A DNA stretch of 64,000 bases from Terriglobia bacterium (GTDB taxonomy: Bacteria; Acidobacteriota; Terriglobia; UBA7540), in contig JASHOS010000198.1 in assembly GCA_030040995.1 (NCBI GenBank), positions 838 through 64,837 of the forward strand. The letters are read 5' to 3'. A program made the translations under genes and the position numbers. The notes beneath the pieces were generated by a model. That model was not told where the DNA came from. It saw only the letters and a program-made list of their open reading frames with translations, and ran no database searches. This document shows positions 7,524 through 54,345 of this stretch, one piece after another; the stretch's first letter is position 1, and the number at the start of each line of letters is the position of its first letter.

Positions 7524-7545
7524 TCGTAATTTAGAACCGGAGTCG

Positions 7546-12403: not shown

Positions 12404-12425
12404 GTAATGCCTCAGTTTCGGGAGC

Positions 12426-12478: not shown

Positions 12479-12517
12479 AATTGCGCCCGAAACTGAGGCG
12501 CTACGTCTGAGGTTCTT

Positions 12518-13597: not shown

Positions 13598-13603
13598 GCG
13601 GCC

Positions 13604-14572: not shown

Positions 14573-14580
14573 ATGACACC

Positions 14581-15429: not shown

Positions 15430-15473
15430 GATCCAGTCCACAGATTACGCAGATTGCGCTGATTGGCGCAATT

Positions 15474-15526
15474 GTAGCGGCGGGTTTACCCCGCCACGCA
15501 AGATGGCGGCACAAAGCCGCCTCTAC
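15474..15526. repeat. REPIN-like doublet, family B (inverted relative to 12426)
   Basis: GTAGCGGCGGGtttacCCCGCC...GGCGGCacaaaGCCGCCTCTAC. Confidence 0.75.
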
Positions 15527-15597
15527 GCACCCGAAAACTGAGGGATTACGCGGAATCTGCGGATCTTATGGAAGGATAGGAAGGTGCGGGCAGGGCG

Positions 15598-16032
15598 ATG
15601 ATCATCAAACTGGTTCGCCTCAAAATCCAGAGTCGTAAGTCCGAAGACGCAATTAACATCACGGCGCAGGTTGAGGAAGCCGTAAAAAATAGCGGCGTCA
15701 GGAACGGCCTCGTGAACATCCTCACTGCGCACACCTCATCCGGTCTTCTTGTCACCGAAGGCATTCCTTGCCTTGAAGAGGACATTCTTACCCACCTTGC
15801 GCGCCTCGTCCCGGAGGACGAAAGCTACCATCACCGGCGCTACCTTGACTACGACGGCCGCCTCGGATTCAACGCCGACGCGCACCTCAAGAGTATCCTG
15901 GGCGGAATTCATTGCATGTTCCCCATCGAAAACGGCGAGTTGGTAAGAGGCTCGCGCCAGACGGTCTACTTCATGGAGTACGACGGTCCCCTAGAGAGAA
16001 CCTGCATGGTGCAAGTGATGGGGGAGGCGTAA
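15598..16032 (+). CDS. YjbQ/UPF0047 family protein (secondary thiamine-phosphate synthase-like)
   Basis: 144 aa. Pattern INITAQVEEAV...GLVNILTAHTSSGL...HLKSILGG typical of the family. Confidence 0.8.
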   Translation: MIIKLVRLKIQSRKSEDAINITAQVEEAVKNSGVRNGLVNILTAHTSSGLLVTEGIPCLEEDILTHLARLVPEDESYHHRRYLDYDGRLGFNADAHLKSILGGIHCMFPIENGELVRGSRQTVYFMEYDGPLERTCMVQVMGEA

Positions 16033-16118
16033 GTTCATTGTCGTGCTGTGTCTGCAAATCAAGCAACCGCAGACATGTAAGCACGTCTGCCACCCATCCA
16101 CGTCCGTTGACAGGTTCC

Positions 16119-16412
16119 CTAACGCGACAGCCACCGCTTCGGGCTGCGCTTGCCGTGGAAACAGGCAATCACCAGAATCCTGTGTTCCTGAACTTCGAAG
16201 AATATCCCGTAAGGGAACCGCCGCACTCCGGCCCGACGCCGATTCCGGTACACTGCCGCGAACTGTAGCGGATTTTGGCGAATCGCCTCAACCGTGGCTT
16301 CGACCGCCAAGGCGAACCGCTCCCCAAGTTCCGCGCGTATGTCGTCGTGCCAGTCCCGCGCTTCTTTCAAGTCCGCGGCCGCCTCCGGCATCCAGACCAC
16401 CGGCAGCGTCAC
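16119..16412 (-). CDS. RelE/ParE-family type II toxin
   Basis: 97 aa. Has ...FPYGIFFEVQEHRILVIACFHGKRSP. Overlaps the upstream antitoxin ORF by 4 nt. Confidence 0.85.
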   Translation of the reverse strand: MTLPVVWMPEAAADLKEARDWHDDIRAELGERFALAVEATVEAIRQNPLQFAAVYRNRRRAGVRRFPYGIFFEVQEHRILVIACFHGKRSPKRWLSR

Positions 16413-16615
16413 GGCTTCTTAAACAGGCCCGCCCTGACTTGCTCCCACGGGATCACATCGGAAGGATTTTGCTCATGCCGGGCCATGCGGTAATCAAGCT
16501 CCCGGCGCTGCGCTTCCGTCAACGGTTCGGCTTCCAGGCTTTGCCACACTGCGTCTAGCAGGTCCGCCTTCTCCGCGGCCGAAAGACCTTCTATCTGACT
16601 TTTCAAATCGCTCAT
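16409..16615 (-). CDS. Addiction-module antitoxin (putative addiction module component family)
   Basis: 68 aa. LSAAEKADLLDAVWQSLE...PLTEAQRRELDYRMARHEQNP. Confidence 0.8.
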   Translation of the reverse strand: MSDLKSQIEGLSAAEKADLLDAVWQSLEAEPLTEAQRRELDYRMARHEQNPSDVIPWEQVRAGLFKKP

Positions 16616-16835
16616 CTGCCTACAACCTTAGCGCCGGCTCTCCGTATTGGCAAGGCCAACCTGCCGCTGTCATACCGCCGCCCTCGGCCCGGTTGGCGGG
16701 AAGCCCTTCGCCGGCTGCCCCTACCCGCGAAATGCACCCGCGGCCGCAGACTCATGGCGGGCCCACCTCCGCCTAAGAGCCGGACTTTCAGCGAGGGCGC
16801 CACGATCATTAGTTCCTGGCGAGCGCAATTTTAGT

Positions 16836-18260
16836 TCAACGCGGGAGTCCGGCGGGTGGAGGCGACGGAGCTTGCGTCTTGAGTTGGAAAACAGGGTGTT
16901 GCAAGGTGCCGGTGACGACAAACGGAACGTCGATTTTATGGCCGTGAAAAGTGCCGCCCGAAAGGCGCGCCAGAAGGCTCGAAAGCGGATTCGGGCGCGC
17001 CGCAATCCCCGCCAACCCGTCCAACTGGAGCTGGTCCTGCGAGGCAAGGTTCACGCTGGCAGAACCATCCAGCGTGATGCCGCGGCCGATGGCGCGGAAA
17101 CGTGATATTTCGAGGAGGCCGTCGCGGAGCTGCCAGACCGCGGAAACGGACGAAAAAGCAGAAAGATCACCTGAAACCGGTCCGAGTTGGGCGAGATGCG
17201 CGAGAGCAAGAACCGTCTGATCGAGCCGAAGCTTGGGCCATCTTCCCTTCCGGACAATAAGCTCGCCTTCGCCCTGCTCGTCGGCCCACCGGTCTGCAGA
17301 AGCAGCCGTGCCCCCGGAAAACGTGATCCGGCCATCCATCGTGCCCGTCATCTGCCCGCGCAGCGCGGGGACTTCTGCCAAGAATTTTTCAACGTTAACG
17401 CCGCTCAAGTGGGCCTGAGCTTGATAGCTAGCGCCTGGAAGATTCATGCTGCCAGTTCCGGTTGCACGCCCACCATAGAAATCAAACTGCACGCCGTTGA
17501 AGCTGAGACGCGCAGGCGTTGCGTGGACGCCGGCCTCTACGTGAGTTGCCAGGAAATTCCCAAACCAAATGGCCGCCGCCCTCAATTTTCCGGATGAGCT
17601 GCTGGCACGGACCCTCACAACTGACTTGCCCGGCGCGGCTCGCGCGGACGGGGCTACAGGCAAAGCCGTCCATTCAGGTATATCGATTTGATCGAGATTC
17701 GCAGTGAGCCCGTCGCACCGGAAAATAGGACGCCCGCTCGCGCCGTCCGGCAGCAACCTTTCAATCTCGATTTGCCCTCCGATCAACATCAGGTTTGAAA
17801 CTTTGCGGAATACGAAAGGCGGGGGATCGTTGGACGGAACGGGCACTCGAACAGCCGGAGGGACAGCTTGAAAATTCCAGCTTCCCTGCGGGCCGAAATA
17901 GAGGTTCAGGACCGCGCCTTTCAATTCGAGAGCTCGAATAACTACTTGCCGCCTGAACAATGCACCCGCGTCCAGCCGCGCGTCAATACTCTTGACGGTA
18001 ACCCAATTCCCATTCGGAAACCCGGGCGGATTGACGAGCGCGAATTGATCCACTTCAATCCTGAAGACCGGAAGGAGACTCAGTTGGAGACGGCCAATTG
18101 CCACGCGCCGGCCAGTTTGCTGCTCGATATACGAGATAATCTCCGGGCGATAGCGATCGATCTGAACAACGCGCGGCGCGATGAATACCACCGCAACCAG
18201 AAATCCGGCGACGACCGCGAGAAGGGCGAGGCTGAGTTTCCTCTTAGTACCGAACATCAA
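16836..18260 (-). CDS. AsmA-family outer-membrane biogenesis protein
   Basis: 474 aa. N-terminal TM anchor, then an AsmA-like repeat architecture (IDRYRPEIISYIEQQTGRRVAIGRLQLSL...). Confidence 0.7.
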   Translation of the reverse strand: MMFGTKRKLSLALLAVVAGFLVAVVFIAPRVVQIDRYRPEIISYIEQQTGRRVAIGRLQLSLLPVFRIEVDQFALVNPPGFPNGNWVTVKSIDARLDAGALFRRQVVIRALELKGAVLNLYFGPQGSWNFQAVPPAVRVPVPSNDPPPFVFRKVSNLMLIGGQIEIERLLPDGASGRPIFRCDGLTANLDQIDIPEWTALPVAPSARAAPGKSVVRVRASSSSGKLRAAAIWFGNFLATHVEAGVHATPARLSFNGVQFDFYGGRATGTGSMNLPGASYQAQAHLSGVNVEKFLAEVPALRGQMTGTMDGRITFSGGTAASADRWADEQGEGELIVRKGRWPKLRLDQTVLALAHLAQLGPVSGDLSAFSSVSAVWQLRDGLLEISRFRAIGRGITLDGSASVNLASQDQLQLDGLAGIAARPNPLSSLLARLSGGTFHGHKIDVPFVVTGTLQHPVFQLKTQAPSPPPAGLPR

Positions 18261-18395
18261 ATTTCCGAATGCGTCGTATCAGGGCGCGATCCTGCCCTGT
18301 GGGTTCGTGCCGCTGGAGTTTCTACATTTCGGAAGCGGCGGAACGCGCGTTTTATGGGGTGGCGACTTGGGTTGTGCCTCAGAGCTCGCAAACCT

Positions 18396-18650
18396 GGAGG
18401 CCCGAAGGGCCGCTCTATCACAGCCCTGGGCAGCGCCCAAGGAATCGGGTCTACGTTGCGAAAACGAGCCCTGAAAGGGCGACCCCAAGCGCCCTCAATT
18501 CCACGCGCACCGTTCGTACCTGACCTCGTAACTGCGAGCATCTGCGATGGTACGTCCTTTCAGGGCTTCAGCTATACAGACCATCATGCCCTTGACCCAG
18601 GCCGACTGGTCCCGCAGGGCGGGACTGCGATAGAGCGCCGCTTCGCGGCT
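18396..18650. mobile_element. MITE-like element of about 255 bp, family E copy 1
   Basis: Imperfect terminal inverted repeats of about 33 bp (ggaggcccgaagggccgctctatcacagccctgg / cgcagggcgggactgcgatagagcgccgcttcgcggct). No ORF. An inverted second copy lies at 51162..51426. Confidence 0.7.
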
Positions 18651-18848
18651 AAGAATGTAGAGGTAAGCGTCTTGCCACTTTGTTCCAAACGTTTTCGCCT
18701 TTTTCGTCGTTCGGGGCGTCTGGGAGAACCTTTACCCGGTTGTTCCACCAAGGGTAAGCGGCCGGCGCCAAGTGGCCCCCATCTTGCAACTTCTCAAAAC
18801 CTTTGCGGCTAGCGGTTAATTCCGCCGGGCCGAAAAGGGGACAATAGT

Positions 18849-19070
18849 ATGAAGAATATTGAAGACGTCGAATTTGACAACGACTTTATAGCCCTGGTGC
18901 CGCTCGCCCAGGCGGTGCTGTGCGTAGACTGCGAGCGCATCTCGCAGCAGAGCGGCGGGCATTGCTGCGCGGGATGTGGAAGCACACACATGATTAACCT
19001 GGCCGCTGTATTGAACCCTGTTGACCGGCAGCGTAAACGAGCCGAAGTGACGCTATTGAGCTGCGCATAA
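18849..19070 (+). CDS. Small Cys-rich (CxxC...CxxC zinc-ribbon-like) hypothetical protein
   Basis: 73 aa. CVDCERI...CCAGCGSTH. A purine-rich aaaagggga lies upstream of the ATG. Confidence 0.45.
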   Translation: MKNIEDVEFDNDFIALVPLAQAVLCVDCERISQQSGGHCCAGCGSTHMINLAAVLNPVDRQRKRAEVTLLSCA

Positions 19071-19073
19071 AGC

Positions 19074-19126
19074 GTAGAGGCGGCTTTATGCCGCCACTCT
19101 GCATGGTGGGATAAACCCACCGCTAC
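19074..19126. repeat. REPIN-like doublet, family B
   Basis: GTAGAGGCGGCtttatGCCGCC...GGTGGGataaaCCCACCGCTAC. Confidence 0.75.
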
Positions 19127-19302
19127 AATTCCGTCCACAACTGCGGCATTGCCGGTCAATTCGCTTTCGAATTGACCGTGGGCTTGTATTTCGCAAAACA
19201 GCCACGGTCAACCGAACGCACTGGCCATATCTACCAGTCTACCCCGATCCCACATTCACCAATAATCCGCGCTAAGATGTAATCTCCTCATAAGCGCGGC
19301 TC

Positions 19303-20475
19303 ATGGATATCGACGCAATTCAGGGGAATCTCCGGCAGGCGGGCCTCGATGGATGGCTTTTTTACGACCACCACCACCGCGACCCGATCGCCTATCGTAT
19401 TCTGCAGATCGCACCGGCGCTGTGTTCGCGGCGTTGGTACTACCTCGTCCCCGCTTCGGGCGAACCGGAGAAGTTGGTGCATCGGATCGAGCGCGGGAGT
19501 CTTTCCCGATTGCCGGGCCGCGAGCGCGTTTATGCATCATGGCGCGAGCAGCGCGAAGGGTTGCGGGCGGTCCTCGCCGGCAAAACAAAGGTAGCGATGC
19601 AATACTCGCCTTTGAACGAAATCCCCTATATCGGCTTGGTGGATGCGGGCACGGTCGAGTTAGTGCGCGCCTTTGGCGTGGAAGTGGTTTCGTCCGCTGA
19701 TCTTGTCCAGGTGTTCGAAGCGCGGTGGCCGCCCCGGGCGCTGGACTTGCACCTGGAGGCAGGCAGAGCTGTTCATCGGATCGTTCGCCAGGCGTTTGGC
19801 ATGATTCGCGATGCCGTGCTCGACGGCAAGACGCTAAGCGAATACGACCTTCAGCAGGAGATCCTTCAGCTTTATGGCGAGTACGGACTCGAAGCCACAG
19901 AACCGCCCATCGTGGCGGTAAACACCCATAGCGGCGACCCGCACTACGTTCCGGAACCACAGGGCTCGTCCTCCATACGCTCGGGCGATCTCGTCCTGCT
20001 GGATATCTGGGCCAAGCGGCGCGCTCCGGGCGCCGTCTATTTCGACATCACGTGGACGGGATTTGTGGGAAAGGAAATTCCGGACGCTTATGCCAAGCTT
20101 TTCGACGTGGTACGAGAGGCGCGTGATACGGGAGTGGATCGAGTGCAAGCCGCGAAGCGGTCCGGCAGCCCCATCCACGGTTACGAAGTCGATGATGCGG
20201 TGCGCGCCGTTGTTGCGCGCCACGGCTACGCTGACCTTTTCGTTCACCGGACAGGCCATTCGATTGGCCAAGAAGTGCACGGCAACGGCGCGAACATGGA
20301 TAATTTCGAGACACACGACGCGCGCGCCCTGATCGCGGGCACGTGTTTTTCGATCGAGCCGGGCATTTACCGCAATGACTTCGGCGTCCGAAGCGAGGTG
20401 GATGTTTACGTTGAGGAGCGGGACGCGCGGGTAACAGGGGAAATCCAGCAAGCCATTGTTCCCATCCTTGTCTGA
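19303..20475 (+). CDS. M24-family metallopeptidase (Xaa-Pro aminopeptidase-like)
   Basis: 390 aa. Creatinase-like N-domain plus pita-bread fold metal ligands (DIW..., HRTGHSIG, FSIEPG). Confidence 0.85.
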   Translation: MDIDAIQGNLRQAGLDGWLFYDHHHRDPIAYRILQIAPALCSRRWYYLVPASGEPEKLVHRIERGSLSRLPGRERVYASWREQREGLRAVLAGKTKVAMQYSPLNEIPYIGLVDAGTVELVRAFGVEVVSSADLVQVFEARWPPRALDLHLEAGRAVHRIVRQAFGMIRDAVLDGKTLSEYDLQQEILQLYGEYGLEATEPPIVAVNTHSGDPHYVPEPQGSSSIRSGDLVLLDIWAKRRAPGAVYFDITWTGFVGKEIPDAYAKLFDVVREARDTGVDRVQAAKRSGSPIHGYEVDDAVRAVVARHGYADLFVHRTGHSIGQEVHGNGANMDNFETHDARALIAGTCFSIEPGIYRNDFGVRSEVDVYVEERDARVTGEIQQAIVPILV

Positions 20476-20486
20476 CTCGAAAAGAA

Positions 20487-20603
20487 CCCCTGCCCTCGCC
20501 CCCTTGGGGGAGAGGGCGGCGCGCAGCGCCGGGTGAGGGAGTCCCGGCCGAGATCTTCGGAGCACGGCACGACTTCAGTCGTGCCGGAAAGGCCCTCACC
20601 CAT
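20487..20603. repeat. Composite GC-hairpin repeat, family C
   Basis: CCCTCGCCCCCTTGGGGGAGAGGG hairpin, then gggtgaggg and the GGCACGACttcaGTCGTGCC hairpin. Confidence 0.7.
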
Positions 20604-20636
20604 CGCTTCACGGTCTCCTCTCTCCCGCGCCTGGAC

Positions 20637-21719
20637 CTACAGAATCAACATGCAATCGCCATAGCTATAAAACCGGTAATGCTTCTCGATTGCGTGCCGG
20701 TAAGCCCGAAAGAGAAATTCAAGGCCGGCGAAAGCGGCGGCCAGCATCAGCGGCGTAGAGCGCGGGAGATGAAAATTCGTGAGCAAGCCGTTAATCACCC
20801 GGAATGGAAATCCGGGCGTGATAAACAAGCCGGTTTCCCCGGCCTCGGAAACGATGGTTTGGTTCACGCGCGCCACATGCTCTAACGTCCGGGTACACGT
20901 TGTACCTGTTGCGATCACCCGGCGGTCTTGGCGCAGAGCCTGGCGGATGGTCGCAGCGGCGGAAGGAGAAACCTCGTACCTTTCGGCATCCATTTTGTGG
21001 TCCTCAACGCAGGAGCTCTTGACCGGCCGGAAAGTTCCGGGACCCACGTGTAGCGTGATTTCGCAGACTTCAATTCCGCGGACGCGAAGCTCGTCAAGGA
21101 GCCTGGGAGTGAAGTGGAGGCCGGCGGTTGGTGCCGCTATAGCGCCGGTGGCCTTGGCATATACGGTCTGGTAACTCTCGCGGTCGGAGGCGTCGTCAGG
21201 GCGGCTCAGATAAGGCGGTAAGGGGATATGGCCCAATTCGTTCAGCTTTTCTTCCACGCTTGCTTCGCGGGCCCGGAGGCGTACGCGGCGCATGCCTTGC
21301 GACGTCCGGCCTAGAACTTCCGCTTCAAGCTCGTCGTTGCCGAACGTCAGCACTTCTCCCGTCCGGACCTTCCGCCCGGGGCGGACCATAGCGTTCCAGA
21401 CACCGCCGCCCTCTTCCTGTGAAAGCAACATCTCGATTTCCGATTTTAGAAATTGGCCGATCCGTGGATTATTTTTCCCAAGCCTTTGCGACCGAATCCC
21501 CCGCCGCCGTCCGAGCAAGCGGGCGGGAAACACCTTGGTATTATTGAGCACCAGGAGATCACCCGCATCAAGGATTTGAGGCAGATCGCGGAAAGTGCGA
21601 TCCTGGAGGGTCTGTGCTTTTCGGTCGAGCACCAACATCCTTGATGCATCGCGTTCGCCGAGCGGCCTCTGCGCGATCAATTCCGCGGGTAATGGGTAAT
21701 CAAAGTCGGACAAAAGCAT
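20637..21719 (-). CDS. queA: S-adenosylmethionine:tRNA ribosyltransferase-isomerase
   Basis: 360 aa. MLLSDFDYPLPAELIAQRPL...ASRMLVLDR and further QueA-typical blocks. Confidence 0.95.
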   Translation of the reverse strand: MLLSDFDYPLPAELIAQRPLGERDASRMLVLDRKAQTLQDRTFRDLPQILDAGDLLVLNNTKVFPARLLGRRRGIRSQRLGKNNPRIGQFLKSEIEMLLSQEEGGGVWNAMVRPGRKVRTGEVLTFGNDELEAEVLGRTSQGMRRVRLRAREASVEEKLNELGHIPLPPYLSRPDDASDRESYQTVYAKATGAIAAPTAGLHFTPRLLDELRVRGIEVCEITLHVGPGTFRPVKSSCVEDHKMDAERYEVSPSAAATIRQALRQDRRVIATGTTCTRTLEHVARVNQTIVSEAGETGLFITPGFPFRVINGLLTNFHLPRSTPLMLAAAFAGLEFLFRAYRHAIEKHYRFYSYGDCMLIL

Positions 21720-27744: not shown

Positions 27745-27780
27745 CTAGAGGTGCCATCGCCCTCGGCGTGAGCTTTCAGA

Positions 27781-27965
27781 CGTCATGTCGCTTCGCGACA
27801 CCCGCGAAGCATGAAAGGAGCCCCTGCCCTCACCCCCTTGGGGGAGAGGGCGGTCCCGCCCAGCGGGACCGGGCCTGCGCCCACCGAAGGTCGCTTACGC
27901 TCCAGAGCTTCCGCGACGGAGCGGCTCCTGCCCGCAGGCGGGTGAGGGGATCCGGGCCGAAATTT
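27781..27965. repeat. Composite GC-hairpin repeat, family C (long subfamily)
   Basis: catgtcgcttcgcgacacccgcgaagcatg palindrome, CCCTCACCCCCTTGGGGGAGAGGG, and ...gcgggtgagggga. Inverted counterpart at 52745..52945. Confidence 0.7.
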
Positions 27966-33304: not shown

Positions 33305-34420
33305 ATGACCTCTTACAAACAACCGGATACGATGCCCGAACTCCGAACCACGAACCCCGAGCCCCGAGCCCCAAGCCTACCGCCATGGCATGACTCCCGT
33401 TTTATGAGGGCTTGCCGGCGCCAGCCAGTGGACGCCACTCCGGTATGGCTGATGCGCCAGGCGGGCCGCTATCTCAAGGAATACCGCGCGCTACGCGCAT
33501 CGACTCCCTTCCTTGAGCTGTGCAAGAACCCGGAGCTGGCTGCGGAACTGACGGTGATGGCAGCCAAGCGCATTGGCGCCGATGCGGCAATCCTCTTCGC
33601 CGACCTTCTGCTCATCGCGGAGCCCATGGGCTTCCGCATCGAGTACGATAAAGGTCCTGGCCCGCTCGTTCGGCCGGCACTGCGCAGCGGGACGAGCCTT
33701 ACCCACCTTCCGGAAGTAGAATCGCAGGATTCACTCGCCTACGTTTTCGAAGCCGTCCGGCGCGCCCGGGCGGCGCTCGACGCTTCCTTACCCTTGATCG
33801 GCTTTGCCGGAGCTCCTTTTACGCTAGCCTCTTACTTGATTGAAGGCGGACCGTCAAAGACTTTCCGGCATACGAAGACGCTGATGTTCAGCGACGCCGG
33901 CGAATGGCACGCGCTGATGGATTATCTCGTAAGAAACTTGGTAAAATACACCCGCGGCCAAATCGAAGCCGGTGTTCAGGCAGTACAGATATTCGATTCG
34001 TGGGCCGGATGCCTCGCGCCGGCGCACTATCGCGAGTTCGTGCTTCCCCACATGCGGCAGTTTTTTGCCGGTCTCCCGCAAGGTGTTCCAACCATCCATT
34101 TCGCCACCGGCGCTGGGGCGTTGCTCAAAGACATGCAAGACGCCGGCGGAGATGTGATAGGTCTCGATTTTCGGGTCTCCCTGGGCGAAGCTTGGAACCG
34201 GCTCGGGCCGCAAGCAGCCGTGCAGGGCAACCTCGACCCCACCGTGCTTTTCGCCGGCTCCCCCTATATCCGGAAGCAAGTTCGGAGTATCCTGAGCGAG
34301 GCCGCCGGCCGGAGGGGACACATTTTCAATCTTGGCCACGGCGTTCTGCCCGAAACCCCCGTTGAGCACGTTACCGCGCTAATAGAAATGGTCCACGAGG
34401 AAAGTCAGGTGCTTCGCTAG
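33305..34420 (+). CDS. hemE: Uroporphyrinogen decarboxylase
   Basis: 371 aa. PVWLMRQAGRYLKEYR signature and further URO-D blocks. Confidence 0.95.
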   Translation: MTSYKQPDTMPELRTTNPEPRAPSLPPWHDSRFMRACRRQPVDATPVWLMRQAGRYLKEYRALRASTPFLELCKNPELAAELTVMAAKRIGADAAILFADLLLIAEPMGFRIEYDKGPGPLVRPALRSGTSLTHLPEVESQDSLAYVFEAVRRARAALDASLPLIGFAGAPFTLASYLIEGGPSKTFRHTKTLMFSDAGEWHALMDYLVRNLVKYTRGQIEAGVQAVQIFDSWAGCLAPAHYREFVLPHMRQFFAGLPQGVPTIHFATGAGALLKDMQDAGGDVIGLDFRVSLGEAWNRLGPQAAVQGNLDPTVLFAGSPYIRKQVRSILSEAAGRRGHIFNLGHGVLPETPVEHVTALIEMVHEESQVLR

Positions 34421-34629
34421 AAACAGTGACGAAGCACCGGAGTCCGCACTGCATTTCACAAATTCTGTTTACTGTATTGTAAATACCCAACCATACATGT
34501 TATGAACTACTGTGAGATTTTGCATGCGGAGACCGGGACTGACCAGAAGCCTGGCGATGTGACCGGTTTGGAGTGGCTGGGGGTGAAAGCAGAATCTCTT
34601 TGCTTTCTGGGAAAGGAAGGAGAGAATAC

Positions 34630-34827
34630 TTGAATCAAACACATAAATCAGTTGACAATTCAGTGCGCAAAGCCTTCGAGCTTCTGATCCAGCTTCGGGG
34701 CCATCGCCACGCGGGACGGCTGCTCGAGCTGGCAAACAGCTATCTTCAGTTACTCACTCATGCCGACACAGCAGATTGCATTCCCGTTGTGGTAACCGTT
34801 CGGACGATGAAAATCCGGGAGCCCTAG
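34630..34827 (+). CDS. Small hypothetical protein (65 aa) with a strong Shine-Dalgarno
   Basis: AAGGAG at 34617..34622, 7-nt spacer, TTG at 34630. LNQTHKSVDNSVRKAFELLIQLRGHRHAGRLLELANSYLQ.... No family recognised. Confidence 0.35.
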   Translation: MNQTHKSVDNSVRKAFELLIQLRGHRHAGRLLELANSYLQLLTHADTADCIPVVVTVRTMKIREP

Positions 34828-34828
34828 T

Positions 34829-34915
34829 CCGGATCTCTCACGGATGCGAGGCAAGGCCGGGGTTGAAATCCGCCCTTCCACCGCGAGCAGCACTCCTGGC
34901 GAGAAGGTCGGGCTA
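34829..34915. repeat. Family G element, copy 2, ending 2 nt before the XRE gene stop codon
   Basis: gaaatccgcccttccaccgcgagcagcactcctggcgagaaggtc matches 1716..1762 with a few substitutions. Confidence 0.5.
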
Positions 34916-34916
34916 G

Positions 34917-35405
34917 CTAATTGGCATCTCCTGAAGAACCGGGGACGCCGGCCGCCACTGCAGGCATTCGCGCGGCTTGCAGCTCAGAAACACGGCGTTG
35001 AAGCTCTGCAGCAAGGTCCTCCAGGATGCGCAATTGCTCGGAGCGACGCTGCACGGTGCTCTCAAGCTTGGCTATTTGGCGCCGCAGTTTTGCGTTCTCG
35101 CGCGCCAGCGCGCCCGAATCGGATTCGGGAGATCCTCGTGTTGAAGCTTGGCTGGGGATGACGGGCGGGCTGGCAACGCGCCCCTGCGCTTGGCGGATAA
35201 GGACTTCCACGTCTTTCCGCTCGATACCGGGAGGACAGAGGCTGCGCAAGGCAAATAAACGGGCCAAATCGGGCTGGTTGCGTCCCCGCTCCCAATGCTG
35301 GATCGCAGCTTTCGTGGCATTCAAGCGGCGCGCTAGAGCCTCCTGGCTCAAGCCTATCCTCTGTCGCGCTCTCCGGATAACCTGGGGTACATCAAGCGTT
35401 GCCAT
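34917..35405 (-). CDS. XRE-family HTH regulator with a C-terminal coiled coil
   Basis: 162 aa. IRRARQRIGLSQEALARRLNATKAAIQHWERGRNQP, then NAKLRRQIAKLESTVQRRSEQLRILEDLAAELQRRVSELQ. Confidence 0.8.
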   Translation of the reverse strand: MATLDVPQVIRRARQRIGLSQEALARRLNATKAAIQHWERGRNQPDLARLFALRSLCPPGIERKDVEVLIRQAQGRVASPPVIPSQASTRGSPESDSGALARENAKLRRQIAKLESTVQRRSEQLRILEDLAAELQRRVSELQAARMPAVAAGVPGSSGDAN

Positions 35406-35613
35406 TTCTGGTCCTCCTGACGTTGACGCCGGGAATCTGGATTAGGAACTTGGATTTCGGGAAGTACACCAAACCTGACCTCAAGTTGCAAATCCCAGCG
35501 CCTGCTTCTAAGCCTGAAAGGGGAGTCTGTGTTTCGGCCCTCGGCTACGACTGAGCGCCGTCCTCTTGCCAGGCATGTGCCGCTGGGACAGCGGCCGCTA
35601 CCAACCCATTCTG

Positions 35614-35671
35614 TAGCGCCGACCTTCAGGTTGGCATTTGGCCCGATGCCGGGCTCCAGCCCGGCGCTACG
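35614..35671. repeat. REPIN-like doublet, family A
   Basis: GTAGCGCCGACCttcaGGTTGGC...GCCGGGCtccaGCCCGGCGCTAC. Confidence 0.75.
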
Positions 35672-35712
35672 AGCCCAAGACGGGGGTACCATCCCTGAAG
35701 GTCAAATATCCC

Positions 35713-35741
35713 TTGACAAAGCTACCTGGCTAGGCTAGAAT
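35713..35741 (+). promoter_or_regulatory. Near-consensus sigma-70-type promoter, divergent from the XRE gene
   Basis: TTGACA (35713..35718), exactly 17 nt, TAGAAT (35736..35741). Confidence 0.5.
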
Positions 35742-35867
35742 CCAATTGTTCTCCTTTGCTGGCGCGCACGAAGGTGACTTGGCTCGAGCGCTCGCCAGAT
35801 CAGATTTCCGGCAGCTCTACGCTTTACAAAAGCTGCCAAGCTGCTGAAGCCTTATCAAGTTACTCCG

Positions 35868-35900
35868 CCATGCGATCCTTTCAAAGCGCATGGTTTTTTT
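35868..35900 (+). terminator. Rho-independent terminator-like hairpin about 150 nt downstream of the 35713 promoter
   Basis: CCATGCG (35868..35874), 12-nt loop, CGCATGG (35887..35893), followed by T7 (35894..35900). Confidence 0.55.
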
Positions 35901-35925
35901 CGCATTGCTGTATTTACTATTTAGT

Positions 35926-35942
35926 GAATATCTTAATGATAT
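35926..35942. promoter_or_regulatory. Operator-like site 1: ATATC-N5-GATAT inside GAATATCTTAATGATAT
   Basis: Perfect 5-bp inverted arms. A 16-nt near-repeat lies 88 nt downstream. Confidence 0.3.
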
Positions 35943-36013
35943 CGAGTTGGGCCGCTCGACAATCCGCGTCCTCAACGCCGCCGCAGATTCTGCTGTCCAC
36001 TCTCATCCCTATT

Positions 36014-36030
36014 GAATATCTATATGATAA
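36014..36030. promoter_or_regulatory. Operator-like site 2: ATATC-N5-GATAa inside GAATATCTATATGATAA
   Basis: 14 of 16 nt identical to site 1. Confidence 0.3.
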
Positions 36031-36591
36031 AACGACGCTTACTGTTCCGTCCCGGCGATTCGTTCATCGGCGACGCTCGGGGCCATACCTCGCCGGATGG
36101 TTATCGCTCGAACGGAACCCCAGGTGTCCATCTTCTCTTAAAGCCGCATCTTTGCACTCGCGCCGCCGATCCGTAAAGTCCTGGCTGACAAGGACATACG
36201 AAACTCACCTTTGTCCTTGCGGCCCCGAGACCGCCCCTTGTCACCCGAAAGCCAGCCTAGAGCCGTACAACTTAGCGCCCGAGGAGCTTACGGCTAGCCT
36301 ACAGCATTCCGGCTCTGACGTCAAGTATGGCTCGAAAGCTAGCCTATCGGAAGCCTTGGATGCGGCGTCTCCGGTCCGTATGTGGCCGCGATTCCCGGAA
36401 AGTCCAGCCCCACCGGAAATCTGGCCAATGAGCACGTCACAATTGCCACGTCCGGGAAGGGCCAGCACAACCAGATTTGAACTTCTTAGACGTGCAAGAC
36501 ATCCCCTCGCGCAGACCAGTATTCTTTCACTCCCTCGCACTTACCCAGCGGAGCCTGTTAATAAACTAGCTCTGCCCAGAGAGGAGCTTTC

Positions 36592-36972
36592 ATGGAATTC
36601 TGTCAGAACGTATCCAAGCCATTCAACCTGCGCGGGTTGCCTAAGACCATTGCCAACCCGGCTCCCGAAACGATGCTCTTACCCAACTTGGACCCCCGGC
36701 CGTGGCAGGATCCTCTGCCCAATCGGCCGGCCACTGCCAGCGGGCGATGCTCAGAGAGAGGCTGTGTATTTCCGGCCGCTGGGACCGCCACTGGACGATG
36801 CCGCCAGCACGAACGGCAAGCGCGTGAACCCATTCTCTTCTCTTCGCACCAACCTACGCGGGTTGTACTGGAAAGCGGAAGGTTCGATGTACCGGAAGCC
36901 GACGGGGAAAGCCTCAGAAGCAGAGACCGCCGCCGTATGGCCGCGCTCCGGGAAGCTTTTCTAGAAGGCTGA
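36592..36972 (+). CDS. Hypothetical 126-aa protein with a CX4C...CX2H motif
   Basis: GAGGAG 5 nt upstream of ATG 36592, and a stop 36 nt upstream in frame. CSERGCVFPAAGTATGRCRQHE. More balanced composition than the overlapping 402-aa frame. Confidence 0.5.
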   Translation: MEFCQNVSKPFNLRGLPKTIANPAPETMLLPNLDPRPWQDPLPNRPATASGRCSERGCVFPAAGTATGRCRQHERQAREPILFSSHQPTRVVLESGRFDVPEADGESLRSRDRRRMAALREAFLEG

Positions 36973-37004
36973 AGCAACCCTGTTCGGAGGTGAGTGAGGT
37001 AGCG

Positions 37005-37280
37005 ATGCCTATGACAACGCAACAAAACGGAAGCAATTCGGTTTCGGGAAAGTTGCCGCCAAGGTTGCCCGACGACGGCTCTCAACTTCCTCTTGTCACC
37101 CCTTCCAGCGCCTGGCGCATTCTGTGTCACCGGACGGGCGTCCCGGTCTCTCGCGCGACGTTCTACCGGTGGCTCGGAAATGGGAGGGTGTTCTCTTATC
37201 GTATGGGGCAGAAAATCTACGTTCCTGTTCCCATCCTTGAGCAGATCATCGAGCACTGCCGCGCCGGCGAACGGTTTTAG
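37005..37280 (+). CDS. Excisionase/MerR-like HTH_17 DNA-binding protein
   Basis: ...TPSSAWRILCHRTGVPVSRATFYRWLGNGRVFSYRMGQKIYVPVPILEQIIE. GAGG lies 5 nt upstream of ATG 37005. Confidence 0.7.
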   Translation: MPMTTQQNGSNSVSGKLPPRLPDDGSQLPLVTPSSAWRILCHRTGVPVSRATFYRWLGNGRVFSYRMGQKIYVPVPILEQIIEHCRAGERF

Positions 37281-37659
37281 CCCCAATACATCTGCACGCT
37301 GCGCTCGCTGGCGTTGCGGGTGGGGGCACCTCCGGTTGCGGGCCGTTGTTAGTGTCGATGATCAGCTTTCAGCGAAGATCTCTAGCGCGTTTTCGGCTGA
37401 TCGGCCGGGACGCGTGAGAAAAAGCCAACCTACGGTAAAGGGCGCGGCGGAGCGTCTGCAAAGGAAAGACGAGCGACGAGGACCACTGCCGCTTTTTGTC
37501 GCTTGCTTCCGCTAACGTCCTTAGCAACGATCTGGGCCTGCTCCCGGGCACTTAATGGAGGCGGCTCCTGGTAGTCTTCCCCCGCTCGACCGCCGGCTCC
37601 TTAGGCAATCAATGCGCGGTCTTAGTAGTCTGCTAATTTGGATTATTGCGGCGCCGCCG

Positions 37660-38514
37660 CTAGTTGGCGTAGTCGTCGGCTTCAACTCTAACCAACCGCA
37701 AGTTCTGAGCCGAAACACCCTCTCCTGGCACAAAGAACAGGGTTCCGTGGGCGTGGAACAGTTCGTATACGAATCTAGTTTGATAGTGCCTCGGCCGCGC
37801 TTGAAATTGATAGTCGACGCATCCAATCAGCACAGGGACGATAAACCCGGTGCCAGGGTGATCGGGAGGGTAGGTCATACTCTCTGGATAAATGGGTTTC
37901 CCCACACCTTCGTAAATGGTGCCCGGCTCCTGAGGCAGGACGATCGTTCCACCGCTTTGGCGTTCCGTCACAGAATCGCAATACCTCTTCTCCTCCGCGG
38001 CCAGACTCTCGGAAGACCCATCGTGTGTATAGGGTGCTATGTACAGTTCAGGGAAAACCTGGACGTTCAGTGCCGGGGAGTGCCCAACATTGTGAATATG
38101 CACTTCGTAGTTAAAAAAGGCTTGGTATTTAGCACGATTGTGAAAGACGCGACTGACATCCTGAAAACTGAGAGCCATAATGCCGATCTTCCCACGGGGC
38201 CTAACATCTGTGACCTCGATCCAAGGCCTCGCGGTGAGTTCCAGTTGGCGCTCCGCGAGCTCGGTAGTTCGGTGCGCCTCTTTCAATTGCCCCTGAAAGA
38301 TCCATGCCGACCACAACGCCGCGCCGGCTATCACCAAGGTCAGAATAACGGTGGCTATTTCAGTCCATTTAGACTTATCTCGTGGAGTTTCCCGGTAGCG
38401 GCGCAACCAATCGCGGATAGTAGCCAGAATCTTGGATGGCGCTGGTACGCTATCTTTTGCGTCGGAGCTATTCTTTGGGTCGCTGGGGGCGTTATCGTGT
38501 GGCGCGGAGTTCAT
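37660..38514 (-). CDS. Hypothetical single-pass membrane protein
   Basis: 284 aa. N-terminal polar region, TM helix WTEIATVILTLVIAGAALWSAWIF, then a domain of about 210 aa. Protein-like composition, unlike the overlapping + strand ORF 37555..38910. No SD seen. Confidence 0.55.
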   Translation of the reverse strand: MNSAPHDNAPSDPKNSSDAKDSVPAPSKILATIRDWLRRYRETPRDKSKWTEIATVILTLVIAGAALWSAWIFQGQLKEAHRTTELAERQLELTARPWIEVTDVRPRGKIGIMALSFQDVSRVFHNRAKYQAFFNYEVHIHNVGHSPALNVQVFPELYIAPYTHDGSSESLAAEEKRYCDSVTERQSGGTIVLPQEPGTIYEGVGKPIYPESMTYPPDHPGTGFIVPVLIGCVDYQFQARPRHYQTRFVYELFHAHGTLFFVPGEGVSAQNLRLVRVEADDYAN

Positions 38515-38955
38515 ATCATGGACGAAATCTTAGGTGTTGGCGTACCCTGCGTAATCTTCGGCCTGGTCGTCATGACCGTCGGATTATGGATGCTTCATTG
38601 GACGTTTTTGAAGGCCAACCCCTTTCTCAACGCAGGAGATAGCGTAACACGCAGCAGATGTTTGGTAAGCTCCGCCCATTCTAACACACGTATCCACGCG
38701 AGGAAGCTGGGTCTTGCGGCAGGGGCTGCGGATCGAAGTGGGGGAGCTACATCATTTAGGGCTATGACAGAAGGGATCAAGCAAGGGTACGATAACGGTC
38801 GTTCGCTTCATGTTAGAGAAGCTGCGTGGTCTGGCGAACTGGCTACAGCCAACGGGCAAGACTTCTCAGAATGCATGCACGGTAATTCGAACTCCACAGG
38901 CTCGGGCTGAAAACTGAAATTTAGGAGTCTACGGCGATTTCCGGCGCGGGTAGGC

Positions 38956-40461
38956 TCAACCTGTCCACCGGATCTTCACCCGGTACATCAGAACCGTGCT
39001 GCCATTCGTGGGGACGGGGACGTGAAACCGCGCCGACGTGGAGCTTGTCTTCTTGTAGGGCAGGCTCGAGCTCAGGATTTGCCAGTCGCCATGAAAAGGC
39101 TCGTTCACGATCACCGCAATCGACTGGGATTGATGGTTCCGAATTGTGATTTCGTAGGCTGCTTCGGCCGTGTTCGGACCGGTTCGTCTGTAGTCGGTCT
39201 CCTTTCCCTTCTCGACCACGTCGAAGGCGTTTCCGAGGTCTAACCTCACGGTTTCACCCGGCGCGGTGTCGCCGAGCCTGTCCTCTCCGATAAGTTGAGC
39301 GTGGCCGGCCTGGTCGGGCTTATAAACTCGCACCACTCCCTCGGGCAGAGGCTCGCCGAGCAAGTTAGCCTTGGTATTATCGAATGTCAAGTAAAGCTCG
39401 ACAGGAGTATTCAGCAGCTCGCTCGGTTCAACACCTTGGCTGTAATACGCCTGGCCGGTCACAACGTAGCTTCTGCTGATCCGCACCCCGGATGATGCAA
39501 AAAGATTCACCTGGTTTGTCGAGTCATTCTGTAGGTCTATAGGGTGCGGGAAAGTATAAAGGTGATATCCGTAAAACGGGACCTGCTGCGGCGGCGATGG
39601 GGCGCTGATAAGCGGTTGCTTGGTGAGACTTCCCAGGCTCCCGCCGATCACACCACCTCCAAACCCCGCTCCGTAACCCATGCCTTCGCTGACCCGTCGG
39701 ACTTCGCCGGCCACAAGCTGAAGCTCGGCTCGATCGTAATCTGCGCCCGTCTGGTTGTCGATTGTGGCGCGGGCGGAGAGATCGGCCGTTTTCCAATCGG
39801 ACATTACTTGGATCACATAGTTTGCGTCCCAGGAGAGATTATTAGCCAGGTAAGAGACCCGAATGCTCTGCCGGCCCGCGTGGTGGTTTCCGAGAGACAG
39901 AACGAGCGACGGGCTTGCGGTGAGGCCGGGCGGGATCGAGGGAAAGATGTAGTGGTCCACCCTCAGTCCCGTCTCGATTTTTCCGCCGATCCGCCAGACG
40001 GGTTGGGGATTGGCGGCGAGCAACGTGGCTTCAACGTGCTGTTCGACGTCCGAACCTTCCTTTTGGCACCTCAGAACTAGGGTGACCGGCTGTCCGACGT
40101 AGGCCTGAAGCAGGCGCTCGGGATTCAACAGGTCATAAGCGTAGGTTTGCGCAAGAACGGCCAGACCGTCCGGCGCCGTTATCGGCTCCACCTGCACCGA
40201 GTCCGGCAGCAATTGGCGCGCGACGCCGGAAAATTGCAAATCCACCGGGCCTTCCGGCAACTCCACGTCGCGCGTATCGCGCACTACAGCGGCGCCCTCC
40301 CGGTAAACAGTAATCGAAAGTTCTTTCCGGTCCTTTGGGGTTGTAATTTCAGGAGGCGGCGTAGCCTGCATCGCCGGGGCGAAGCACTCTGCAGCCAGAA
40401 TTAGACCTACGAGAACGATGAGGCTCTCGCGGCGCCCCCGCAAAGCACTCGCGATTTGCAT
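38956..40461 (-). CDS. DUF4139-family secreted protein
   Basis: 501 aa. Signal peptide, then an architecture resembling DUF4140/DUF4139 proteins (SITVYREGAAVVRDTRDVELPEGPVDLQFSGV...). Confidence 0.65.
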   Translation of the reverse strand: MQIASALRGRRESLIVLVGLILAAECFAPAMQATPPPEITTPKDRKELSITVYREGAAVVRDTRDVELPEGPVDLQFSGVARQLLPDSVQVEPITAPDGLAVLAQTYAYDLLNPERLLQAYVGQPVTLVLRCQKEGSDVEQHVEATLLAANPQPVWRIGGKIETGLRVDHYIFPSIPPGLTASPSLVLSLGNHHAGRQSIRVSYLANNLSWDANYVIQVMSDWKTADLSARATIDNQTGADYDRAELQLVAGEVRRVSEGMGYGAGFGGGVIGGSLGSLTKQPLISAPSPPQQVPFYGYHLYTFPHPIDLQNDSTNQVNLFASSGVRISRSYVVTGQAYYSQGVEPSELLNTPVELYLTFDNTKANLLGEPLPEGVVRVYKPDQAGHAQLIGEDRLGDTAPGETVRLDLGNAFDVVEKGKETDYRRTGPNTAEAAYEITIRNHQSQSIAVIVNEPFHGDWQILSSSLPYKKTSSTSARFHVPVPTNGSTVLMYRVKIRWTG

Positions 40462-41688: not shown

Positions 41689-41723
41689 AGCTGTCAGCTG
41701 TCAGCTGTCAGCATTCAGCTTTC
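41689..41723. repeat. Tandem heptanucleotide array (AGCTGTC)x3 plus two degenerate units
   Basis: agctgtc agctgtc agctgtc agcattc agctttc, 8 nt upstream of the annotated dCTP deaminase ATG. Confidence 0.7.
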
Positions 41724-41908
41724 ATCGATCTGTTAATCCGTCTTTCACCCGGTCGCGTCGCGCAAGCCAAAATGTAACCCGTGGAGGTATCTTCGCGCAA
41801 TCCTGGACTGTAAGCGGGAGAGGGAGGAAGATTTTCCGTTATCGACGGATTGGAGTTCGTCAGGTCCCGTTGTGCCACTTAGGTACCGCAGTGTACCATG
41901 ATTCGAGT

Positions 41909-51211: not shown

Positions 51212-51426
51212 AGGCATACTACTCTTCGTACAACTGAAGCCCTGACGGGGCATACCTCGCAGATGCTCCTACGGCCAAGCGCTCTTGGACATCTCGAGTA
51301 CGGCGAGCGGTACGTGGGGGGATTTCAGGGTACCTCAGGTCGCCCTTTCAGGGCTCGTTTTCGCAAGGCAGACTCGATTCCCTGGGCGTTGCCCAGGGCT
51401 ATGATAGAGCGGCCCTTCGGGCCTCC
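51162..51426. mobile_element. MITE-like element, family E copy 2, overlapping the last 50 nt of uvrA
   Basis: gagccgcgaagcggcgccctatcacagcccagg ... cccagggctatgatagagcggcccttcgggcctcc. Aligns along its length with the reverse complement of 18396..18650. Confidence 0.7.
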
Positions 51427-51439: not shown

Positions 51440-51620
51440 CCGCGCGCGGGAGCGGGGCCGGGGGTGAGGGGGCGTCATTGCGGCACGACAAAAGTCGTGC
51501 CCTGTCTTGAAAATCTCGGCAGAACCCCCTCACCCGGCACTGCGCGCCACCCTCTCCCCCAAGGGGGCGAGGGCAGAGGCGATTTTCATAGCTTCGCGAG
51601 TGTCGCAAAGCAACATGGCC
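51440..51620. repeat. Composite GC-hairpin repeat, family C
   Basis: gggtgaggggg, GGCACGACaaaaGTCGTGCC, CCCTCTCCCCCAAGGGGGCGAGGG, ttcatagcttcgcgagtgtcgc. Confidence 0.7.
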
Positions 51621-51673
51621 ATCTGATACCACGCGTTGTAACGCCAATTTACGCAACCAAGCATTAGACGGGT

Positions 51674-54244: not shown

Positions 54245-54345
54245 GTAGCGCAGTGTGGCCTTGCGGCCGCAATCGGGGGAAACCCTGCCCTCGCCCCCCT
54301 TGGGGGAGAGGGTGGTCCCGCCGCGCGGGACCGGGTGAGGGGGTC
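54245..54345. repeat. Composite GC-hairpin repeat, family C, with tGTAGCGCAG head
   Basis: ttGTAGCGCAGtgtggccttgcggccgcaa...CCCTCGCCCCCCTTGGGGGAGAGGG...gggtgaggggg. Confidence 0.7.

Follow-up and report, generated by a model that had tools for sequence, protein, structure and literature searches.

A lineage-wide regulatory cassette of Acidobacteriota beside hemE, and its possible working as a switch on convergent promoters

The interval and its core

The interval studied here lies at positions 34421-38955 of a 64-kb window, the whole stretch of DNA that was analysed, from the Terriglobia bacterium contig JASHOS010000198.1. It is bordered on the left by hemE (33305-34420; URO-D, 421 bits) and on the right by a DUF4139/DUF4140 gene on the minus strand (38956-40461). 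Comparison with related loci shows that the interval is a composite, consisting of a core cassette of regulatory genes and sites at 34440-37280 and of two later insertions. The original prediction had read it as an orphan regulatory island between two ordinary genes. As an observation this was largely right and is partly confirmed overall, in that both border genes were found and nearly all of the open reading frames (ORFs), the promoter and the terminated transcript of about 150 nt lie where they had been placed; its interpretation is partly supported.

The core runs in the order orf65, the XRE gene (on the minus strand), promoter P1 with a short terminated RNA, a gap of 0.6-0.9 kb, orf126 and orf91. 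Its features are as follows.

34469-34482: palindrome TTAC-N6-GTAA, upstream of orf65
34630-34827, plus strand: orf65, a small conserved helical protein of 65 aa, convergent with the XRE gene
34917-35405, minus strand: XRE regulator, with HTH_3 at the N-terminus, then a conserved CPPG-ERK helix and a variable linker, and a coiled coil at the C-terminus
35713-35741, plus strand: promoter P1, TTGACA-17-TAGAAT, matching 11 of 12 consensus positions
35731-35737: predicted operator O1, TAGGCTA, overlapping the -10 element of P1
35748-35900, plus strand: predicted P1 transcript of about 150 nt, its start placed from the -10 element
35868-35874 and 35887-35893 (stem) with T7 at 35894-35900, plus strand: terminator T1
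35916-35945, minus strand: leftward promoter-like site PX, TCGATA-18-AATAGT, overlapping the palindrome TTTACT..AGTGAA
35936-36964, plus strand: gapORF (relevant part 35936-36591), open from a conserved ATG and continuing out of frame through orf126
36295-36301 and 36340-36346: predicted operators O2 and O3, TAGCCTA, exactly 45 nt apart
36319-36324 and 36296-36301 (both as reverse complement), minus strand: leftward promoter-like site at O2/O3, TTGACG-17-TAGGCT, matching 8 of 12 positions
36592-36972, plus strand: orf126, 126 aa, with a proline-rich variable N-terminus followed by a zinc knuckle (CX4C-X11-CX2H) and a C-terminal helix that is conserved (..DRRxLAAxREAFLED)
37005-37280, plus strand: orf91, an HTH_17 DNA-binding protein of 91 aa with an excisionase/BldC-like winged helix

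Conservation and descent of the core

Its distribution shows the core to be a chromosomal regulatory cassette of Terriglobia/Acidobacteriota that is inherited vertically throughout the lineage. A genome scan, which took one genome per species and an alignment-based orf126 query and counted genes by tblastn, found the order XRE gene, gap, orf126, orf91 kept in 59 species-level genomes, all of them Acidobacteriota, with core proteins at 40-70% identity; orf65 is present in the closer ones. The XRE gene stands upstream on the minus strand, with position and orientation kept, at 53 of the 59 genome loci, and orf91 directly follows orf126 at 57. Over all loci compared, orf65 was detected in 19, among which it is 31-95% identical. 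The neighbours are ordinary chromosomal genes; those that recur are an epimerase, a pyridine-nucleotide oxidoreductase, an acyl-CoA dehydrogenase, a glycosyltransferase, LeuC and hemD/E, and in the 55 loci an integrase is not one of them. hemE itself adjoins the cassette in 8 distinct loci, and three contexts of orf126 homologues show the same five-part order beside differing neighbours.

Compared loci and contigs are designated here by L-numbers. One relative that lacks the membrane-protein gene of the window (mem284) is L009, an 83-kb metagenome contig of about 93% DNA identity with the order DCD, DUF4139, orf91, orf126, gap, XRE, orf65, hemE and hemD. The identities of hemE, the XRE protein and orf126 to those of the window are 95, 96 and 96% in L009 and 68-71, 62-68 and 50-71% in L012-L022. 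The three thus drop together, as vertical descent would give.

Since the same gene set occurs in relatives with housekeeping-like conservation, and in the same order beside ordinary chromosomal genes in 59 species-level genomes, the orphan-island reading does not hold for the core; mem284 lies outside it. Nor are the ORFs unrecognisable, as had been thought: conserved families exist for orf65, the XRE regulator, orf126 and orf91 alike. Exact-sequence look-ups also placed ORFs of the interval on other contigs. A scan of the genome collection with hemE alone and one of metagenomes with orf91 alone returned nothing, both being limited by exact-peptide seeding. No published description of the cassette was found in literature searches.

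The absence of an integrase, a tRNA gene and an att repeat, as originally reported, was borne out. No ORF of the interval carries a recombinase domain by Pfam, PHROGs, PADLOC or NCBIfam, ARAGORN finds no tRNA in the 64-kb window, and the best att-type flanking direct repeats (17-24 nt at 71-82% identity) are at chance level.

Two side observations concern the relatives. In L013 (2195-4135) and L016 (656 aa), hemD and hemE are fused as a single HEM4+URO-D ORF of 646-656 aa, unlike in the window, where they are separate genes. One metagenome-assembled genome (MAG) holds two whole cassettes, L047 and L073 (CAVSWQ010000048.1 and CAVSWQ010000009.1), which either are paralogues or reflect a bin of mixed strains; between their gapORFs there is a 15% difference and no indel.

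Strain-specific insertions

Alignment of the window with L009 leaves three indels, at 35427-35695 (269 nt), 36350-36406 (57 nt) and 37285-38964 (1,680 nt), and the interval is accordingly not one unit, as had been supposed. The features of the two later insertions are as follows.

35427-35695: 269-nt insertion between the XRE start and P1, absent from L009, strain-specific
37285-38964: 1.68-kb insertion carrying mem284, where L009 has 46 nt instead, strain-specific
37660-38514, minus strand: mem284, a single-pass membrane protein of 284 aa with one hydrophobic helix

The family of mem284 is tiny, with 12 clusters; its 11 homologues elsewhere are all in unrelated contexts. Those in L002-L005 (about 6300-20900) lie in a defence-like region with AbiTii, NYN, HTH_3-Peptidase_M78 plus DUF4411, and DUF4238. 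The homologue in L006 (about 5000-17400) lies with PIN/RHH, RtcB, SSB and many small ORFs, and L008 has two chromosomal paralogues in tandem. No XRE gene of the cassette type, orf126 or orf91 was found near any mem284 homologue, and a homologue of mem284 is missing from all 59 genome loci. Because L009 lacks the insertion and the homologues lie in places without cassette genes, mem284 falls outside the cassette; on these comparisons it is to be regarded as a separate strain-specific insertion and not as an effector of the module. The membrane protein had been counted as part of the module, and co-occurrence of the ORFs at 36592, 37005 and 37660 had been proposed as a check: orf126 and orf91 are indeed paired at 57 of 59 loci, and mem284 joins them at none of the 59. 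As a known defence or phage protein mem284 was rejected, there being no match in Pfam, PHROGs, PADLOC or NCBIfam.

Antisense to mem284 runs a 451-aa ORF (window 37555-38910, plus strand), whose codon score locally exceeds that of the N-terminal region of mem284 at about 38400-38550. It is probably spurious, since its apparent homologues are antisense frames of mem284 homologues.

The 269-nt insertion contains a 72-nt interspersed repeat (35610-35681), of which further copies lie in the window at 11360-11421 and 2513-2543 and in L009 at 17937-18008. The repeat resembles repetitive extragenic palindromic sequences or miniature inverted-repeat transposable elements and can be folded into a cruciform or three-way junction. 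A cruciform at 35613-35670 was considered as a tRNA-like or att structure and dropped, given that ARAGORN finds no tRNA and that it is a copy of the interspersed repeat within a strain-specific insertion.

The proteins of the cassette

Searches of the ORFs of the interval with PHROGs, PADLOC and NCBIfam recognised only the generic helix-turn-helix (HTH) of the XRE protein. That this protein joins an XRE HTH to a coiled coil, as first described, is well supported: HTH_3 scores 42 bits over residues 10-53, where the Pfam gathering score is 23, and heptad-like repeats run through the C-terminus, in which the coiled coil is conserved. The HTH profile resembles that of the P22 C2 repressor (E-value 6e-4). 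Mean column identity in the family alignment is 60%, and between the XRE proteins of L029 and the window identity is only 27%.

The ORF at 36592, orf126, carries the CX4C..CX2H motif that had been noted in it. Among 26 homologues of 124-141 aa from Terriglobia MAGs, the four ligands C53, C58, C70 and H73 are invariant and the last 75 residues are highly conserved; an exhaustive profile search extends the family to 203 clusters at 50% identity. Substitutions in the three codon phases number 1/3/8, 5/4/16 and 6/5/22 in three close pairs. Judged by this codon-phase bias, orf126 is shown to be coding and under purifying selection, and it has its own conserved Shine-Dalgarno sequence and start. Outside the knuckle and the terminal helix, confidence in the structural model is low (predicted local distance difference test, pLDDT, 64). 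The best matches are A20-type zinc fingers (PDB 2eqf, 2eqe, 3oj3), which are not significant either by profile (E-value 0.8) or by fold (E-value 2.1, template modelling, TM, score 0.55). Local sequence is alike (C.k.GCvF....G.C, in matches at E-values of 0.8-2 that are not significant), and so is the ligand spacing, CX2-4C-X11-CX2C in zf-A20 and CX4C-X11-CX2H, invariant in 26 sequences, in orf126; the last ligand of orf126, unlike that of zf-A20, is a histidine. As A20 fingers are eukaryotic ubiquitin-binding modules, no functional inference for orf126 is justified from this likeness.

The excisionase-type HTH assigned to the ORF at 37005 is upheld by structure prediction. The window protein alone scores 17.6 bits with HTH_17, below the cut-off of 27, and the family match is found in 31 of 34 members at E-values of 0.01 or less, the best being 7.4e-8; some relatives carry precomputed PF12728. 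The AlphaFold2 model has a pLDDT of 74 overall and 85-90 over residues 31-80, and its top Foldseek matches are Pukovnik Xis (4j2n) and BldC (6ama/6amk), with a probability of 0.99, TM scores of 0.73-0.77 and a root-mean-square deviation of 1.5-1.9 Å. By the model, then, orf91 has the Xis/BldC fold. Streptomyces BldC is a precedent for a small, excisionase-fold chromosomal regulator without a recombinase. The identity to BldC is only about 21-24%, orf91 has a variable N-terminal tail of 30 residues and, unlike BldC, it sits directly after orf126 in this cassette. A functional excisionase partner was sought in the window and among recurrent features of the relatives, where neither an integrase nor an att site was found; a distant genomic partner is possible.

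Profile and structure searches of the small ORFs, which had been suggested with the prediction, thus identified orf91, gave no significant match for orf126, and found none for orf65 in Pfam, PHROG, PADLOC, NCBIfam or the PDB.

Promoter P1, its short RNA and the operators

In almost all of about 57 loci, the XRE start codon has the pattern TTGACA-N12-TAGGC-TA(G/C)A(A/C)T at a distance of 21-41 nt. In the window, the distance is 307 nt because of the 269-nt insertion. The near-consensus promoter at 35713-35741, divergent from the XRE gene, was therefore rightly recognised, as was the predicted terminator-bounded transcript, with its hairpin and T7 at 35868-35900. The T1 hairpin appears in both the minimum free energy and the centroid structure, and an intrinsic terminator close to P1 is found in 35 distinct loci. 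The predicted RNA would be 85-190 nt long in the clade of the window and 45-50 nt in another clade. Its sequence is not conserved between clades, as would be expected for a cis-antisense RNA, with the exception of the T1 stem: CCATGCGG/CCGCATGG is conserved in the clade of the window (L012-L034), and the rest of the RNA is not. The conserved stem may be a protein site, or may serve both the P1 RNA and the complementary XRE leader. Compared with L009, the P1 RNA is 96.6% identical, against 77-87% for the remainder of the gap. As a structured or known small RNA the transcript was dropped from consideration, given the lack of an Rfam match, folding at the level of shuffled sequence, and a sequence and length not conserved between clades. 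Rfam 15 covariance models gave no match in the interval even at an E-value of 10 or less, chance-level ones aside, and none in the cassettes of 8 relatives.

The operator-like palindromes of the original prediction were only partly the right ones: the sole 16-nt pair that can be matched to it (CAACC-N6-GGTTG at 36624 and 36850, inside orf126) was rejected as operators, being unconserved beyond the closest relative, and the conserved palindromes are instead TAGSCTA and TTAC-N6-GTAA. TAGSCTA occurs 114 times in 40.7 kb of gaps (1 per 357 nt) versus 24 times in 579 kb outside (1 per 24 kb), an enrichment of about 68-fold, and three of the four sites of the 64-kb window lie in the cassette, at 35731, 36295 and 36340. 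The O2/O3 pair is spaced 43-46 nt apart, almost always 45, in 26 loci and stands 100-340 nt upstream of orf126. In most clade-A loci, GTCAAG, the reverse complement of a -35 TTGAC, follows 18 nt after O2, the -35 being placed 17 nt from O2; across loci, the leftward site between O2 and O3 has the consensus TTGACS-17-TAGSCT.

Equivalents of PX in the relatives match 9-10 of 12 positions and keep the same place, 220-250 nt from the XRE start codon and just past T1. In some clade-A loci (L023/L027) the site reads TTGGCA-17-TATAGT inside a GTTAC-N6-GTAAC palindrome, and in about 20 clade-B loci it reads TTGACA-18-CAGAAT. The strict TTAC-N6-GTAA palindrome has 12 sites inside cassettes versus 1 in 557 kb outside. 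This operator type is found also at the leftward promoter site of many relatives, and in clade A a conserved block TTTACT..TTGTCAATA lies upstream of orf65. In L029 and L030, a GTTAC-N6-GTAAT palindrome takes the place of the TAGGCTA of P1, at positions about 27-60 after the XRE start, and is found again at the leftward site, at about 219-240; there is no TAGSCTA box. This co-variation looks like a switch of operator and repressor specificity.

A possible translated spacer in the gap

The gap between the XRE start and the orf126 start measures about 370-900 nt in all loci. In the window it had been described as 0.8 kb without a convincing gene; it does contain an ORF whose frame is conserved (from 35936 onward), together with a leftward promoter-like site and two conserved operator-type boxes. 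In nearly all loci, one plus-strand frame is open over 80-100% of the gap. Against dinucleotide-preserving shuffles, the median P for this openness is 0.02, with P at or below 0.05 in 35 of 57 loci where about 3 would be expected. Among close pairs, 9 of 11 indels are multiples of 3 (57, 3; 6; 3, 6, 12, 6; 6, 1; 1, 9). The plus strand of the gap is rich in C and poor in G, with a GC skew down to -0.17.

The substitutions show no such constraint. By codon phase they number 32/31/28, 16/21/17 and 41/31/41 in the same three close pairs as were used for orf126, with no third-position excess, and the amino-acid composition (S, L, R, P, A) is that expected from base composition. The translations have no similarity between species whose flanking proteins are 45-70% identical, and the length runs from 59 to 340 codons across loci. 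In most cases gapORF either overlaps orf126 or stops no more than about 50 nt from where orf126 begins, and its frame relative to orf126 falls in the three phases in 11, 24 and 22 of 57 loci, with no fixed relation. The tendency to run into orf126 explains why about 20% of the orf126 proteins in databases are 230-350 aa long. A codon-usage model trained on the long genes of the window gave low scores over most of the interval, and a negative one for gapORF.

Two assignments were dropped on these data. gapORF is not a conventional gene, having a negative codon score, no codon-phase bias and no homologues. It is not an N-terminal extension of orf126 either, being in frame with it in only 11 of 57 loci while orf126 has its own Shine-Dalgarno sequence and start. 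The pattern suggests that selection acts on gapORF being translated and not on its product.

The alternative that survives best is that gapORF does encode a real, fast-evolving protein that matters, disordered or diversifying, for example an anti-repressor or specificity factor. The kept frame and the indels in multiples of 3 would fit such a product, as would the conserved ATG context CAATG at the start and the fact that gene callers sometimes annotate products of 215-234 aa (L010 and L012). CAATG, however, belongs also to the -35 element of the leftward promoter-like site, and a product under selection sits poorly with the lack of third-position excess in any pair, the composition expected from the nucleotides, the absence of cross-species similarity and the variable length. 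A fast-evolving disordered protein, and the reading as a whole, is considered unlikely.

A possible switch on convergent promoters

The switch-like layout first noted stands, with an XRE gene beside a strong divergent promoter, conserved operators, a short terminated RNA and an excisionase-fold protein. The rightward P1 and the leftward consensus sites, which as promoters would face each other, lie at conserved positions in most loci; in the window PX and the O2-O3 site each match 8 of 12 positions. The best explanation of the locus is that of a composite, inherited cassette working as a two-state transcriptional switch on convergent promoters, and taken jointly these statements are considered reasonably probable.

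In the proposed mechanism, leftward transcription from PX and/or the O2-O3 promoter would cross the P1 region and make the XRE mRNA, and P1 would fire rightward into the XRE leader. Since most P1 transcripts would end at T1, the XRE leader would be met by a short countertranscript that is complementary to it without mismatch. Multimers of the XRE protein, formed by way of its coiled coil, would occupy O1, which overlaps the -10 element of P1, and O2/O3, which lie at the leftward promoter, and would in this way set the balance of the two directions. For rightward transcription beyond T1 to arrive at orf126 and orf91, the C-rich gapORF would have to be translated, its ribosomes either shielding the transcript from Rho-dependent polarity or coupling translation to the downstream genes. 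The output regulators would be orf126 and orf91. The fuller proposal, in which this is an undescribed, lineage-wide bistable switch with the P1 RNA as countertranscript, XRE looping between three TAG-S-CTA sites about 550 bp apart and gapORF as a translation gate, is put forward tentatively and is doubtful in its full detail.

Several observations weigh against the switch. Every promoter of the cassette is a consensus match only, and PX in the window is a weak one at 8 of 12 positions. No rightward promoter dedicated to gapORF, orf126 and orf91 was identified; a candidate for gapORF, TTTACT-17-nAnATG, has a putative -10 element without the conserved final T. The exact-TAGSCTA O2/O3 pair is found in only 26 of about 55 loci, clade B having other conserved blocks. 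Support from dinucleotide-preserving shuffles for gapORF being kept open is only moderate at single loci (P above 0.05 in 22 of 57) and becomes convincing only when the loci are taken together. The folding energy of the P1 RNA equals that of shuffled sequence (z = -0.15), so nothing beyond the terminator marks a structured RNA. Finally, all genomes compared are MAGs.

Prophage, antitermination and effector readings

A second alternative is that of a decayed prophage or integrative and conjugative element, in which the cassette would be the immunity-excision region, with a CI-like XRE protein and a Xis-like orf91, left after loss of the integrase and the structural genes. An XRE repressor by a divergent promoter together with an excisionase-fold HTH_17 protein is typical of temperate elements, insertions are tolerated at the site, as those of mem284 and of the repeat show, and a zinc knuckle of the orf126 type, CSEKGCVFPA..C..H, occurs in a small protein of the IMG/VR contig L075. 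A heavily decayed integrative element had been one of the two original interpretations. It is contradicted by a core that is present in 59 species-level genomes in one order, beside stable chromosomal neighbours and diverging in step with hemE. All four proteins are conserved, with purifying selection on orf126, the one tested for codon phase, and variability is confined to the segment with mem284 and the one of 269 nt, with no patchy presence of the core. Neither the locus nor the recurring neighbours of its relatives supplies an integrase, and the locus has no tRNA or att repeat; a tblastn search with orf126 found no match in 50,697 phage records and 72,556 plasmid records. A recent prophage remnant is thus largely refuted, ancient domestication being possible at most, and the reading is considered improbable.

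The protein of L075 (4477-4662; IMGVR_UViG_3300037049_000023), a predicted viral contig, starts MACSEKGCVFPAIRNGRCRRH. With orf126 it has nothing but the zinc knuckle in common, and it lies in a run of small same-strand ORFs, with no other cassette genes.

P1-T1 could also be an antitermination leader of the lambda PR'-tR'/Q type, with the short RNA as its default product, at which orf126 or orf91 would load at the TAGGC box to allow read-through into gapORF, orf126 and orf91. Lambda Q binds between the -35 and -10 elements. In most loci, a strong promoter is closely trailed by a strong terminator, an invariant box lies between the -35 and -10 elements, and the T1 stem is conserved where the rest of the RNA is not, all of which would suit such a leader. 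Against it, orf126 is not similar to Q proteins, and a Q-like gene downstream of its own terminator would be atypical. The same box occurs twice more, 500-560 nt downstream, flanking the leftward promoter, which fits a repressor with looping better than a loader of the Q type. Lambda-Q-like antitermination is kept as a weaker alternative, with a small chance of being correct.

The remaining original interpretation, a regulator-plus-membrane-effector module of an abortive-infection or toxin-like kind with mem284 as the effector under XRE, orf126 and orf91, is very improbable: mem284 directly adjoins orf91 in this strain and in the MAG contig L001, and some of its homologues lie in defence-like islands (AbiTii, NYN, ImmA/IrrE-type HTH_3-Peptidase_M78 plus DUF4411), but it sits in a 1.68-kb insertion absent from L009, which has the complete cassette, its 11 homologues are never beside cassette genes and PADLOC gives no match for mem284, orf126, orf91 or orf65, so that the reading is refuted for the cassette as a whole and could survive only as strain-specific co-option.

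Relation to known systems

By analogy, the closest experimentally known logic to that of the proposed switch is that of prgX/prgQ on pCF10 and of pR-pL in phage 186, although the cassette is a member of neither. On pCF10 of Enterococcus faecalis, the gene for an XRE-type repressor is transcribed against a strong opposing promoter, as is likewise predicted here (PMC5552905, PMC3181467). There, the default product of the opposing promoter is a short terminated RNA and the transcripts are complementary, which is also what is predicted for P1. The repressor of pCF10 acts at more than one operator near the promoter with bistable logic, and the like is proposed for the XRE protein of the cassette. 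The differences are that pCF10 is plasmid-borne and the cassette is chromosomal and lineage-wide; that the XRE protein of the cassette, unlike PrgX, has no peptide-binding (RRNPP) domain and has a coiled-coil tail instead; that the predicted operators are TAG-S-CTA palindromes about 550 bp apart; and that two small regulators behind a long unconstrained ORF, rather than a conjugation operon, lie downstream.

In phage 186/P2, the convergent promoters pR and pL carry the HTH repressor CI on one arm and, on the other, Apl/Cox, a small excisionase-fold protein that may double as a transcription factor, and the arms of the cassette appear parallel to these (PMC7498355, PMC6593788). The promoters of 186 are 62 bp apart, whereas those predicted in the cassette are 150-550 bp apart. 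Unlike 186, the cassette has no integrase, att site or phage genes and is a chromosomal locus in 59 species, and its short terminated RNA, zinc-knuckle protein and open unconstrained ORF have no counterpart in the phage.

The proposed role of gapORF is also akin to that of leader ORFs, in that translation of an upstream ORF across C-rich RNA would gate transcription downstream. Known leader-ORF or Rho-dependent attenuators include tnaC-tnaA and the mgtA and corA leaders, whose leader ORFs span from a few codons to about 30 and often depend on their sequence. The ORF of the cassette has 60-340 codons without sequence constraint, in contrast to those short leaders, and a part for Rho is suggested from composition only.

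Other observations in the window

A near-identical MAG contig, L001 (GCA_030046475.1, contig JASIDE010000199.1), ends inside the gap at window position of about 36131; in it, the gene caller chose an out-of-frame partial ORF of 277 aa in place of orf126. A second repeat family, intergenic and of 60-130 nt, has copies in the window at 20479-20564, 27776-27873, 41702-41817, 51509-51627, 54286-54345 and 58777-58881. All of these match L009 at about 5569-5697, upstream of the dCTP deaminase gene, with 75-91% identity. The sole Rfam match of the window is to the Acido-Lenti-1 RNA (RF01687) at 51380-51424, with 43.2 bits against a gathering threshold of 37, and it lies about 85 nt from one copy of this second repeat family.

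Implications

The locus is a cautionary case, in which a phage-like layout and a strain-specific insertion mimicked a decayed mobile island, and the locus is in fact stable and chromosomal. The current annotation of the module consists of hypothetical proteins and an empty gap. Should the reading of gapORF be confirmed, nature would offer here a clean example of selection that acts on translation as such and not on the product, with a bearing on gene finders and on conservation-based methods for such regions. The translated spacer, if true, would be a class of regulatory element not described before.

Acidobacteriota are among the most abundant soil bacteria, and to our knowledge almost nothing is known about gene regulation in them. 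With a defined promoter, operators, a terminator and four small proteins, the module is directly testable as a switch.

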